From a phage, in sequence record PZ242158.1: DNA of 64,000 bases; one strand, given 5' to 3'. The translations under genes and the position numbers were made by a program. This document shows, in pieces, positions 34,945 to 38,630 of the stretch; positions within the stretch are counted from its first letter, which is position 1, and the number at the start of each line of letters is the position of its first letter. The notes beneath the pieces were generated by a model, which saw only the letters and a list, made by a program, of their open reading frames with translations, ran no database searches and was not told the DNA's origin.

Positions 34945-35937
34945 CTACAGGTTATTACCTGTCCTATGTTTACAACAAATCTCTCTATGCGCTGATTCTA
35001 CCATACTGAACACTTCAGGTCTGTAGTTAAAGAATTCGGTACTACCATCAAATTTTACAGGGAAGTTTATTTTATATTTACTGAAGGCTTTGTGCATAGA
35101 TTTTTCTACAGCCAGCATGTTTTCAGTTGATCCTTCCAACGTTTTCACTATGTGAAGATCGCGGATACCAGCTCCAGATCTTTGTGCACTTTTAAGTATC
35201 TGGTCTCTTCGCTTACTTTCATTATGACTGACCCCTATTTTCATAAATGTAGGTACTTCTGGATCATCAACCATAATGTAGAGTTTTCCGTTATCGTGTG
35301 ATAAAAATCCTGTTTTAGCGCATCTAGGGCAAGCATGTCCCTGCTTAAGACTGCTTGGTACGGTTAACCATGTGTGGCTACAACCTTTACAGCAGCACAG
35401 GACTTTCTTATCCCACCCAATAATTTCTTCCAATATCTCAACATAAGGATTTCTACTTCTTATGGACTCAACCCACTTTTCGTGTGGTGATGTTTTACTT
35501 TGTGAGATTCTTGACCCCTTGCAAACTGGACAACCTCTTTTCAAATTTATATGGTTATCAGGTGTCTGTGTAAAGTGATTTCCACAAGTGTTGCAGATTA
35601 TTTCTACCCTGTCTTTGCAAGTCTTGTAGTATACGAGAGAGTAGTCATATTTATCTCCATGGATTTCTTTGGCCCTTTCTACAAATTTAAGACCTTTATT
35701 ACACTTTGCAGCACGAGAAAGTTTTGCACAAAAAGGACAACCACGACCTTGCAAGTGTTTACAAGGTGCTTGCATAAAATCCCCATGGATTTGGCAGGTA
35801 ATGCAAACCTTCGCATAGCAATCCACGTACACTGTTTTCGTGTAATCGTATTTATAACCGTGAATGATTTTCGCCTTCTCTATAAACTCTTCTGTTGATA
35901 ATTTAGCCATTTCTTGTTTCCTAACTTCCCTAAACAT
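34945..35937 (-). CDS. free-standing homing-endonuclease-like protein (three zinc-ribbon repeats plus C-terminal T5orf172/GIY-YIG-like domain)
   Basis: Repeated HG.KYDYS...C..HG.F...P..H..G.GCP.C units; C-terminal YIMVDD..KIGVSHN. Confidence 0.5.
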   Translation of the reverse strand: MFREVRKQEMAKLSTEEFIEKAKIIHGYKYDYTKTVYVDCYAKVCITCQIHGDFMQAPCKHLQGRGCPFCAKLSRAAKCNKGLKFVERAKEIHGDKYDYSLVYYKTCKDRVEIICNTCGNHFTQTPDNHINLKRGCPVCKGSRISQSKTSPHEKWVESIRSRNPYVEILEEIIGWDKKVLCCCKGCSHTWLTVPSSLKQGHACPRCAKTGFLSHDNGKLYIMVDDPEVPTFMKIGVSHNESKRRDQILKSAQRSGAGIRDLHIVKTLEGSTENMLAVEKSMHKAFSKYKINFPVKFDGSTEFFNYRPEVFSMVESAHREICCKHRTGNNL

Positions 35938-35974: not shown

Positions 35975-37207
35975 TCAGCAACCACAACTTCCGTAGTGCT
36001 TAACTCGCTCGATAACTTCCGCTTGCTTACCTTTATTGTAAGGACGGGAGTTAGGACTGGAAAGATATCCAGACACTCTTCGGATCACTGAGATATATTG
36101 TTCATCGTGGCATCCGCACGCAGGGCAGCAGAACCCTTTAGCTGTTGCACTGAACTCACCAGAGAAACCACACTTGAGACATTTATCCACAGGTTGGTTA
36201 ATACCAAAATACATAATATGTTTATACCCGAAGTCAACAAGAGCCTCTAAAGCATCCAGGTTGTTTTTCAGGTTAGGTGTCTCTACGTATCCAATGTTGC
36301 CACCAGAGGAGATCATAGCAAAACCTTCCTCATACTCCCACTTATCAAAAGGAGAGCTATTTATCCACACTGGCTGATGGAAACTGTTGGTGAGATATTC
36401 ATGCTCGTGCTTCAACACTTCCGGGTATTCACGATCCAGACAGGTTGCAGCTTTATAGCATAGACTCTCAGAAGGAGTGCCGTACAAGCTAAATGCTAGT
36501 CTACTTTCCTTCTTGTATCGCTCACAAGCATCTCTCATGTGCTGAAGGATTCCAAGAGCTAAAGCCTTGTCACCCTCTCTGCCCAAAATCTGACAGGTTT
36601 CATACACACCAATATACCCAATACTGATGGAAGCGTACCCGTCATAGAAGAGTTTATCAATACTCTCTTCAGGATCCAGGCGAGCAAGAGCGCCTTCACA
36701 CCACATGATGGGGTTCTGCCCTGCCTTTGTTCCTTTTAGACGGTTAACCCTTACAAGGTGAGCCTCATATGCAAGATCCAAGTATTCGTCAAGAACTGCA
36801 AAGAAATCAACACCTTCCGTCTTAGCTTTTGCCGCAATCATTGGCAGGTTAAGGCTAACAACGCCTAAGTTAAATCTGCCAAGGTATTTCTCCTCGCCTG
36901 TTTCCAAGTCATTGTATTTGCTAAGAAAACTCCTGCAACCCATGCTAGTTACTTTGCCATCTGTCGAGCCTGTCACTTTTCTATTTAGTGGTACAGATAC
37001 GAAGTCAGGATAGATACGTTCTGCACAGCATTCCAGAGCTAATCGTTTCAAATCATAGTTAGGATCCCCAGGGTTCATGTTGACACCCTCTTCCAGGAAG
37101 AACAGCACTTTAGGGAACACAGGTGTGATACGTTCTTCACCAAGACCCATTTTGTGGACTTTCAAGTAATTTTTGGTAATCATTCTACCAAAGACCGAAG
37201 TGTCCAA
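35975..37207 (-). CDS. nrdD: anaerobic ribonucleoside-triphosphate reductase, C-terminal exon (glycyl-radical domain); true 5' boundary is the intron 3' splice site
   Basis: Zn site CPACGC and glycyl radical motif RRVSGYL near C-terminus. Confidence 0.8.
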   Translation of the reverse strand: MDTSVFGRMITKNYLKVHKMGLGEERITPVFPKVLFFLEEGVNMNPGDPNYDLKRLALECCAERIYPDFVSVPLNRKVTGSTDGKVTSMGCRSFLSKYNDLETGEEKYLGRFNLGVVSLNLPMIAAKAKTEGVDFFAVLDEYLDLAYEAHLVRVNRLKGTKAGQNPIMWCEGALARLDPEESIDKLFYDGYASISIGYIGVYETCQILGREGDKALALGILQHMRDACERYKKESRLAFSLYGTPSESLCYKAATCLDREYPEVLKHEHEYLTNSFHQPVWINSSPFDKWEYEEGFAMISSGGNIGYVETPNLKNNLDALEALVDFGYKHIMYFGINQPVDKCLKCGFSGEFSATAKGFCCPACGCHDEQYISVIRRVSGYLSSPNSRPYNKGKQAEVIERVKHYGSCGC

Positions 37208-37491
37208 ACCTAAACTTAATGTGATAAAAGGGGTTTGCGGTCCCCACCCTTATGTTTCCACAAGGCCAGACTATCTCTTGCCTGAAATCACACCGTGTGA
37301 TTCTTAATCAGACCCCTGCGTTTCGGAATCTTCCATAATCCCTACACCAAAAGGTTAGTCGTTACAACCGCCTCACTCCTTGTGAAGCTAGTCACGGGAT
37401 TGGCATAGCTTTCGCCTTAGCGTTCCCCGTTAGCCAGCGATCAGCTGACCCCTCATACTGAGGTTAGCAGAGTTTTAAAACGGCCAGTTTG
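37208..37491 (-). ncRNA. putative ORF-less group I intron interrupting nrdD
   Basis: About 280 nt separate two nrdD halves; contains R-like element ACGACTAA (P7 5' strand, plus coords about 37352-37368) and S-like element AAGAGATAGTCTGG (P7 3' strand, about 37265-37278); exon 2 frame reads ..GPQTPFITLSLG.. only after the intervening segment. Confidence 0.55.
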
Positions 37492-38355
37492 TTAACCGTT
37501 TACCGAGGTTAGTGTGTTGATCTGATAAAGCAACGTCTGCATGCTGTCAAACACGTCTTTATCTGTCATTTGCATTGCAACAGTTTCAGCATCCGGCAAC
37601 CAATGTTCCTGGCAAAATTTAAGGTTCTTCTCATAGGTTGCTTCAGCATACTGTGCCAGATAATGATCAATATGGCTCATAGTCTGACCACCATATTGAG
37701 CACTAGCTACCGCGCTAGAGATTTGACTAAGGATTGTTGTTGCAACCCCTATTGACTTCGGCTTACTGACATGGGCGTTGCCAATGTTGAATCCGTTTTC
37801 CAACATATCTGGATAATTTACCAAACAACAGTTTGTTAACGGACTGATCAAGTAGTCAAGATCATGCACATGGATGAAGCCTTTATTGTGCTCTTCTGAA
37901 ACACGGTCTGGCAGGATCTGTGTTGATGCAAGGTGTTTGCTAAGGATGCCTGCAAGCAGGTCACGATGAGTGTGTACATGATTAGTGGGCTTATTTGCGT
38001 TTTCTTTTGTAAATTCATCACAAGTTCGATCCAAGAAGCCACTAATATCTGCAAGCAGTTTTCCACCTGCCTCTCTGTTATTATCTCTTGTCTGTCTATA
38101 CTGGATGTATTCTCTGGCTGCACATTTTAAACCCATATCCATAAGAGCATCTTCAACAAGGATATGGATATTTTTTACAGAGATCGTGCACTGGTCGGTT
38201 GGTAGATTGTTAGCAACAACTTCATTAACCGCGCAGGCGATCCGGTAAGCTTCTTCTTCAGTATGTCCAGACTCAAGTAAGGCGGACTCTGCCGCCTTGA
38301 TCACCTTAATTCCGTTATAGAACTCTTCTCTACCGTCCCGTTTTACAACTTTCAC
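37492..38355 (-). CDS. nrdD: anaerobic ribonucleoside-triphosphate reductase, N-terminal exon (ATP-cone)
   Basis: MKVVKRDGREEFY.. ATP-cone start; annotated stop lies inside putative intron. Confidence 0.8.
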   Translation of the reverse strand: MKVVKRDGREEFYNGIKVIKAAESALLESGHTEEEAYRIACAVNEVVANNLPTDQCTISVKNIHILVEDALMDMGLKCAAREYIQYRQTRDNNREAGGKLLADISGFLDRTCDEFTKENANKPTNHVHTHRDLLAGILSKHLASTQILPDRVSEEHNKGFIHVHDLDYLISPLTNCCLVNYPDMLENGFNIGNAHVSKPKSIGVATTILSQISSAVASAQYGGQTMSHIDHYLAQYAEATYEKNLKFCQEHWLPDAETVAMQMTDKDVFDSMQTLLYQINTLTSVNG

Positions 38356-38630
38356 TTTTTCTCTCCAAAACCATTCTTAACAAAAGAGATGAAATCGTCG
38401 GCACCGCCTATATGGACACTTTCAAGATTGCTTTCTAAGAAGATCTGCGGCAACGTTCTGGGGACAATTGGACTGCACTTCTCAATAAGCTCTTCTTTTG
38501 TGTAGCCCTCGCCAAGTGTCTTATATACAAAAGGCAGACCTTTGCTGATTGCAAATTCTTTTGCTCTGACACAATGTGGGCAGTTATCCTTACCGTAAAT
38601 GATGATGAAAAAAGATTTTTCGCAGCTCAT
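38352..38630 (-). CDS. glutaredoxin/thioredoxin-like protein (NrdC/NrdH-like)
   Basis: CPHC active-site motif in 92-aa protein adjacent to nrd genes. Confidence 0.7.
   Translation of the reverse strand: MSCEKSFFIIIYGKDNCPHCVRAKEFAISKGLPFVYKTLGEGYTKEELIEKCSPIVPRTLPQIFLESNLESVHIGGADDFISFVKNGFGEKK

Follow-up and report, generated by a model that had tools for sequence, protein, structure and literature searches.

The window, a 64,000-nt stretch of phage DNA (sequence record PZ242158.1), carries on its minus strand the genes nrdA, nrdB, glutaredoxin and nrdD, a 330-aa open reading frame (ORF) and nrdG, in this order. About 2.5 kb around the split in nrdD is 99.7% identical to Escherichia phage nom and 90–99% identical to 121 records of rV5-like phages of the genus Vequintavirus and, judged by these sequence matches, the source of the window is a Vequintavirus, an rV5-like coliphage. 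The division of nrdD into an N-terminal half (37492–38355) and a C-terminal half (35975–37207), described in an earlier note on this DNA, is borne out, as both ORFs are present and the Pfam domains of the protein are divided between them. The GTG start of nrdD at 38355 overlaps the stop codon of the glutaredoxin gene, and a TTG at 37207 opens the C-terminal ORF of 410 aa. The free-standing endonuclease gene that the same note had placed immediately downstream was also recovered, with endonuclease-like matches in Pfam and PHROG. The features of the locus are the following:

37492 to 38355, minus strand: N-terminal nrdD ORF, with the Pfam ATP-cone and positions 1–154 of the NRDD profile
37207 to 35975, minus strand: C-terminal nrdD ORF, ending at 35975, with NRDD positions 172–562 and Gly_radical (Pfam)
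34945 to 35937, minus strand: putative homing endonuclease gene, free-standing, 330 aa, 37 nt downstream of nrdD

Intron boundaries and the conceptually spliced protein

The interval 37208–37491, which the earlier note had taken as the intron, is merely the gap between the two ORFs, and the intron itself runs from 37494 to 37238 (257 nt). Its position is provided by a metagenomic vequintavirus contig (L008) with an uninterrupted nrdD, whose 707-aa NrdD is 99% identical to the spliced product of the window. BLAST comparison of the two yields two colinear blocks, matching the window at 38400–37496 and from 37238 onward, which adjoin each other in the contig and lie 257 nt apart in the window. 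Taken with this alignment, U37495 at the exon end and the terminal G37238 allow the intron to be placed to the base, giving these features:

37495 to 38355, minus strand: nrdD exon 1, GTG start at 38355, last codon GGU (Gly287), colinear with the uninterrupted allele up to 37496/37495
37238 to 37494, minus strand: group I intron, 257 nt, ORF-less, defined by the exact insertion relative to the uninterrupted allele, the RF00028 match and the helix model
35975 to 37237, minus strand: nrdD exon 2, first codon CAA (Gln288), stop codon 35977–35975, Pfam NRDD 172–562 and Gly_radical

Exon 1 harbors a complete ATP-cone at residues 1–91, followed by NRDD positions 1–154 at residues 118–287. The intron begins with UAAC, so that the in-frame UAA at 37494–37492 is the stop codon of the upstream ORF, and it ends in GACCG, position 37238 being the terminal G. 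The first base of exon 2 is 37237, which puts the exon start 30 nt upstream of the TTG (37207) listed for the ORF.

The proposal that the frame reads through only when an intervening segment is removed is confirmed with the corrected boundaries, since excision of the 257 nt gives a 707-aa NrdD that reads ...INTLTSVNG/QTPFITLSLG... (the slash marks the splice junction). The junction proposed in the note contained GPQTPF; GGA and CCG, there read as Gly and Pro codons, belong to the intron, and the correct junction is NG/QTPF. Alignment to intact NrdD sequences, suggested there as a check, places the splice sites: the spliced protein runs without a gap across the junction against T4 NrdD (PDB 1h78, ...VNTLFSSNGQTPFVTITFG..., stretch ...NTLFSSNGQTPFVTITFG...), and also against 9d3x. 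An identical 707-aa sequence (protein P0121) is called as a single gene on another contig, which derives either from DNA or from spliced RNA. A search for ORFs of at least 20 aa on the gene strand within 37238–37494 found none, in agreement with the earlier statement that the intron holds no homing-endonuclease ORF.

Two other placements of the splice sites were considered and rejected. A 3′ splice site after G37244 (NG/GPQTPF) would insert two residues found neither in T4 NrdD nor in the intron-less allele, and a 5′ splice site after U37494 leaves, as reasoned from the sequence, no in-frame acceptor preceded by G.

Secondary structure of the intron

The helices were modelled by hand and every pair was checked as canonical; all 15 helices of the model contain canonical pairs only. 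The unconstrained minimum-energy fold computed with ViennaRNA (z = −3.1) yields P1, P3, P3.1, P3.2, P4, P5, P6a, P7.1, P7.2, P8 and P9. From the 5′ to the 3′ end of the intron, the elements are:

37479 to 37500, minus strand: P1, in which exon AACGGU (37500–37495) pairs with the internal guide GCCGUU (37484–37479)
37467 to 37472, minus strand: P3 5′ strand CUCUGC, pairing with GCAGGG (37319–37314) and forming a pseudoknot with P7
37433 to 37463, minus strand: P3.1-like (37463–37451) and P3.2-like (37449–37433) hairpins, between P3 and P4
37366 to 37430, minus strand: P4–P5–P6 domain, with P4 at 37430–37425 and 37399–37394, P5 at 37421–37403 and P6/P6a at 37393–37366
37356 to 37360, minus strand: P7 5′ strand GACUA, pairing with UAGUC (37273–37269)
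37325 to 37355, minus strand: P7.1 (37355–37346) and P7.2 (37342–37325), between P7 and the P3 3′ strand
37314 to 37319, minus strand: P3 3′ strand GCAGGG
37280 to 37313, minus strand: P8, GUCUGA/UCAGGC, plus an inner stem
37266 to 37279, minus strand: J8/7 and P7 3′ strand, AAGAGAUAGUCUGG, the S-type element, matching the Rfam consensus AAGAUAUAGUCU and T4
37238 to 37265, minus strand: P9 (37265–37248, GAAA loop) and the 10-nt tail GUGGGGACCG, ending in G37238

The defining features of a group I intron are found in this arrangement. P1 places a U37495·G37484 wobble at the 5′ splice site, and the helix does not vary among the 11 intron copies compared (see below); position −1 is U in each of the 11 intron-bearing alleles, versus G in the empty allele. 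P2 is absent, so that P1 leads straight to P3, and the CUCUGC/GCAGGG pairing of P3 is predicted independently by ViennaRNA and by RNAalifold. The core from P3 to P9 contains the P3/P7 pseudoknot and the stacked P4–P6 domain, in which P5 is closed by a GAAA loop and the sequence AACGGGGAAC...CAAUCCCGU matches both the T4 nrdD intron and the Rfam consensus. The top pair of P4 (37425/37399) is G·U in the window and in some relatives and A·C in five introns of the sister type described below, both sides having changed.

The guanosine-binding helix P7 is built from an R-type element, ACGACUAA at 37362–37355, and the S-type element that follows J8/7 at 37279–37266. The earlier note had pointed to R- and S-like sequences able to form P7, and these are indeed present and pair as GACUA/UAGUC. 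The two strands read ACGACUA and AAGAGAUAGUCUG here, AGACUA and AAGAUAUAGUCU in the Rfam consensus, and ACGACUA and AAGAUAUAGUCUG in T4. P7.1 and P7.2, described as a mark of IA introns in the classification literature (PMC3984707), lie between P7 and the 3′ strand of P3, with the layout of the T4 nrdD intron, and the intron is therefore grouped with the phage IA2 introns, even though P7.1 comprises just 3 bp in the window copy.

At the 3′ end, G37238 directly precedes the CAA codon of exon 2, and all copies at this site end in G. The search for P10 found at most 2 bp (CA/UG), unconserved among the copies. The GGGG of the tail (37245–37242) can pair with the CCCC of exon 2 (37233–37230), and the resulting hairpin would have the 3′ splice site in its 8-nt loop. 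This tail-exon pairing covaries, being GGAG/CUCC in the introns of the FV3 type and GGGGG/UCCCC in a metagenomic locus (L035), and the exon side of the hairpin differs at positions read as synonymous.

Covariance-model match

The Infernal search with the Rfam group I model, put forward as a check in the earlier note, gave a divided answer. With an E-value threshold, RF00028 matches over its full length (model positions 1–253) at 37248–37504, with 29.3 bits and an E-value of 1.3e-5 on a 501-nt region or 0.0017 on the whole 64-kb window, in which it is the sole group I match. This score lies under the curated gathering threshold of 50 bits, so that the intron falls short of family membership by that measure, and Rfam run on the window at the gathering threshold reports only tRNAs and no group I match. 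The bona fide T4 nrdD intron, used as a positive control, scores 105 bits with the same model. Part of the low score is explained by the two hairpins between P3 and P4, which the model cannot place, so that it mis-assigns P3. The P3 that it draws (CGCUGGC with CG-CAGGG, using the 3′ strand of P3.2) was rejected, as by eye it is lost in the sister introns, whereas CUCUGC/GCAGGG covaries. The sub-threshold score is thus a failure of the detection threshold and not the absence of a defining structural feature.

The tRNAs of the window include a cluster of seven on the plus strand (62085–62897), with Arg-tct, Tyr-gta, Ser-tga, Thr-tgt, Met-cat, Pro-tgg and one more, at 62554–62652 (99 nt), which ARAGORN leaves without assignment, with a four-base anticodon 'atcc', and which scores 35.5 bits with the Rfam tRNA model.

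Covariation among copies at the same site

Eleven intron copies were compared, drawn from the window, GenBank records, one IMG/VR contig and metagenomic phages, the last with NrdD exon-2 fragments 79–85% identical to that of the window. A script comparison of these copies reveals compensatory changes in five helices, P3, P3.1, P3.2, P8 and P9. In P3, a G-C pair of the window is replaced by C-G at the same position in a sister intron; P3.1 is CCUC/GAGG or CCCU/AGGG; P3.2 occurs as GUCAGC/GCUGGC, GUCGGC/GCUGGC and GUCGG/CCGGC; P8 is represented among the relatives by five stems that are unrelated and yet complementary; and P9 has three covarying versions. P6a apparently covaries too, as far as the segments can be read by eye. 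P4, P5 and P7 are conserved, in agreement with the consensus, and P1, P5 and P7 are invariant among the relatives, so that no covariation evidence comes from these three helices.

MAFFT misaligned the block from P7.1 to P8 of the window's variant when applied to all 11 copies, and the formal pair count was for this reason made on six sister introns, the window's ORF-less variant being compared outside it through a table made with a dedicated script. Among the six, 98.5% of the cells of the pseudoknotted model are paired, against 31–48% when the partners are slid, and eight pairs have changed on both sides. The observed covariation score was reached by none of 500 shuffles. RNAalifold applied to the same six introns returns the same helices, with nine compensatory pairs. 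The earlier claim of a group I structure is therefore sustained by a full-length Rfam match, a manual model of canonical pairs only and covariation in relatives.

Comparison with the T4 nrdD (sunY) intron

The parallel with T4 that the earlier note had drawn is apt in kind, but the insertion site differs. The T4 nrdD (sunY) intron, an IA2 intron that carries I-TevII, interrupts the same host gene in the same conserved region of the protein. It splits a Tyr codon (U/AU) in YEY/EVNTLFSSNGQ, whereas the intron of the window lies between the G and the Q of NGQ, 32 nt downstream. Both introns begin U/UAAC, with an in-frame stop as the first intron codon; both are devoid of P2 and pass from P1 straight to P3; and in both, P7.1 and P7.2 separate P7 from the P3 3′ strand. 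P7 (GACUA/UAGUC) is identical in the two, while J8/7, P4 and the segment GUAGGG...CCGAAACG that precedes the P3 3′ strand are near-identical. In total, identity extends to 128 of 187 aligned positions, most of them in the core, and outside the core motifs the two introns cannot be aligned.

They differ in that the T4 intron measures 1033 nt, with the ORF of a GIY-YIG endonuclease downstream of P9, whereas that of the window measures 257 nt and has no ORF; in the latter, in turn, P8 is longer and two additional hairpins separate P3 from P4. The gap between nrdD and nrdG holds a free-standing endonuclease gene in both phages, mobC (HNH) in T4 and the T5orf172-type ORF in the window.

Alleles at the nrdD site in related phages

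Three alleles exist at this one site in the genus. Among the approximately 121 GenBank relatives, the junction is uninterrupted (empty site) in 76, the ORF-less intron is present at 99% identity or more in 14, and a sister intron, whose P8 loop contains an HNH gene, is found in 29. The sister intron, found in FV3, WalterGehring, slur16, rV5_ev146 and others, has the identical insertion site, P1 and terminal G, and is 87% identical to the window intron over the first 147 nt, from P1 to P7. The hairpins P3.1 and P3.2, the helices P4–P7, J8/7 and P9 are common to both. The sister form is about 800 nt long, compared with the 257 nt of the ORF-less copy, and its HNH ORF of 177–182 aa is inserted in the P8 loop, with the AUG directly after the P8 5′ strand and the stop codon in J8/7. 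Its P7.1 and P7.2 are longer and, by eye, of different sequences (P7.1 of about 10 bp, against 3 bp in the window), and the two types cannot be aligned with each other from P7.1 to P8.

The exons next to the intron differ as well. Over the 35 nt next to the sister intron, identity to the empty allele is as high as 100%, whereas the ORF-less allele has recoded flanks, with 16 differences within about 40 nt on each side of the site compared with 3.1% over the whole of exon 1; all 16 were read, codon by codon, as synonymous. The pattern of differences resembles a co-conversion tract from a diverged donor, or the outcome of selection against cleavage. A separate ORF-less derivative of the sister type occurs in a metagenomic locus (L033).

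The exact spliced junction with recoded flanks was sought in IMG/VR, where it has no match, and in GenBank, where the only match is phage V18 (KY683736; L117 2525–2540). This phage has the recoded flanks and a 259-nt deletion that takes out the intron together with two bases at the start of exon 2, giving the junction ...AACGGU/AACCCC...; its nrdD is frame-shifted and unannotated. The quality of the V18 sequence is uncertain, since the alignment has five further gap positions.

In some relatives, nrdD is interrupted a second time by an insert with an HNH gene about 85 codons into exon 2 (phage 241Ecol014PP, L003 3972–4723), at a position equivalent to approximately 36938–36928 of the window, which is uninterrupted there. 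The insert has a 3′ end that reaches 35 bits with RF00028 and is closely similar to that of the T4 nrdD intron core. Yet another interruption site is suggested by other metagenomic NrdD fragments, about 550 aa long. Outside this group, unrelated viral contigs from IMG/VR (L012, L018 and L020/L028) contain IA2-like introns with the same P4 and P7 motifs and, by eye, apparently two small hairpins between the P3 5′ strand and P4, so that the two-hairpin layout seems not to be confined to vequintaviruses.

The downstream endonuclease-like gene

The 330-aa ORF matches, in Pfam, the DUF4379 zinc ribbon (as repeats), T5orf172 and MUG113 (GIY-YIG-like) and, in PHROG, endonuclease families. It lies within a stretch of about 1037 nt (approximately 35945–34909) that is unalignable to phage HeinrichReichert, where the cassette is absent and a 117-nt ORF is annotated in the gap between nrdD and nrdG. 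Five GenBank phage records match the gene and only three of them, nom, WalterGehring and Mangalyan, cover most of it, one record annotating it as 'putative homing endonuclease'. A homologue occupies the same gap in the metagenomic locus L035. IMG/VR contains 80 loci with relatives of the gene, all at 52% identity or less and none beside nrdD, and these are of no use in a test of co-occurrence with the intron.

Proposed splicing pathway and alternative readings

With a probability of roughly 90%, the segment 37494–37238 of the minus strand is a 257-nt phage group I intron of the IA2 type, devoid of an endonuclease, that interrupts nrdD between Gly287 (GGU) and Gln288 (CAA). Catalysis by this RNA and its splicing in infected cells are predicted from the anatomy, the exact insertion and the covariation described above, and would follow the standard group I pathway. 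In the proposed model, P1 forms between the internal guide GCCGUU and the exon end AACGGU, with the U·G wobble at the cleavage site, and an external guanosine bound in P7 (GACUA/UAGUC) would attack after U37495. The terminal G37238 would then occupy the guanosine site, so that the freed exon 1 could attack after G37238, joining ...AAC GGU to CAA ACC... in an mRNA that encodes the 707-aa NrdD. On unspliced transcripts, the UAA at intron positions 1–3 would stop the ribosomes. The intron-encoded homing endonuclease gene of mobile introns is absent, so that the intron has no means of homing by itself and would persist by descent and by recombination between co-infecting phages.

It could be argued that the ORF-less intron is instead mobilised in trans, as in 'collaborative homing', or serves as an immunity allele, with an endonuclease encoded elsewhere cutting the empty nrdD site. 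The candidate cutters would be the HNH enzyme of the sister intron of a co-infecting phage or the free-standing T5orf172-type enzyme, and cleavage would spare the intron with its recoded flanks, which repair would then copy into the cut site. Precedents, phage group I introns that lack an ORF and lie beside free-standing homing endonucleases, with collaborative or trans homing, have been reviewed (PMC3984707), and T4 mobC sits in the same gap between nrdD and nrdG. The distribution in the genus is compatible with such an event, as 76 empty, 29 HNH-intron and 14 ORF-less alleles coexist at one site, and the intron site is occupied in all four carriers of the free-standing gene (nom, WalterGehring, Mangalyan and L035). 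The 16 flank differences, all read as synonymous and standing out against the 3.1% of exon 1, point in the same direction, as does the identity of up to 100% over 35 nt between the flanks of the HNH intron and the empty allele. However, at least 10 genomes, such as that of HeinrichReichert, have the ORF-less intron without the free-standing gene, the co-occurrence of gene and intron is weak, its four cases are phylogenetically non-independent, the 80 IMG/VR relatives of the gene are not beside nrdD, and the recoded flanks could be a mere co-conversion tract from a diverged donor. The locus also differs from the published collaborative systems (PMC3984707) in that the targeting of the intron site by the endonuclease is hypothetical and most of the genomes with the intron are without the gene. 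Trans homing of the ORF-less intron is therefore possible but unsupported, and on present evidence it is unlikely.

A more elaborate proposal, and a more doubtful one, is of an 'immunised' nrdD allele, made up of the ORF-less intron and the approximately 80 nt of exon recoded synonymously around it and resistant to the sister HNH enzyme, to the T5orf172-type endonuclease or to both, which would spread through the genus by trans homing during co-infection; the hairpin between tail and exon would tie the recoding to the choice of splice site.

The intron might also be a dead relic, with NrdD produced as two polypeptides that assemble, or with nrdD as a pseudogene. The TTG at 37207 does open an ORF of 410 aa, the frame-shifting 259-nt deletion of V18, with its unannotated nrdD, indicates that the gene can be lost, and split ribonucleotide reductase genes that do not splice exist, the nrdA of Aeromonas phage Aeh1 having been reported to encode two separate assembling polypeptides (PMC3653736). 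Against this, the ribozyme core is kept with compensatory changes among copies whose NrdD exon-2 fragments are 79–99% identical to that of the window, and the U at −1 and the terminal G are retained in 11 of 11 copies. The exons are under constraint at the protein level, with flank differences that all read as synonymous, and the interruption lies within the conserved NGQTPF motif and not at a domain boundary, all of which makes a relic very improbable. Finally, a frameshift, an assembly error or an intein, for which nothing speaks but the existence of two ORFs, is virtually out of the question, as the insert folds as a group I RNA, the same 257 nt recur in 14 phages sequenced independently, with identities of at least 99%, and the in-frame stop at the first codon of the insert makes an intein impossible.

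Annotation and significance

That phage ribonucleotide reductase genes can contain group I introns is textbook knowledge, and the existence of one in this nrdD is unsurprising. The nrdD intron is a new, structurally characterised example of a well-known type of phage element. What is unusual about it is the pair of hairpins separating P3 from P4, the minimal P7.1 and the covarying hairpin, formed by the tail and exon 2, that encloses the 3′ splice site. In the literature on P3.1 and P3.2 that was searched, P3.1 is merely listed as an optional element.

A literature search found no description of the Vequintavirus nrdD intron. The rV5 paper mentions introns only in the terminase gene, the LL12 paper mentions them in the terminase and polymerase genes, and the BASEL paper states that intron boundaries were annotated by comparison. 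The BASEL GenBank records give nrdD as a two-piece join, with a start 71 codons late that cuts off the ATP-cone domain, and phage nom and many other GenBank records have the two exons annotated as separate genes. The finding is of value for annotation, in that the default Rfam threshold misses this intron and nrdD is listed as two genes in most GenBank records of these phages.

Beyond annotation, the locus offers a well-sampled natural system in which a single site in one coliphage genus is found as an empty allele, as an endonuclease-bearing allele and as an ORF-less allele with recoded flanks. The same genus adds a second intron site and, next door, a sporadic free-standing endonuclease cassette, so that the gain and loss of introns, invasion by endonucleases and homing in trans are testable with phages from collections such as BASEL.
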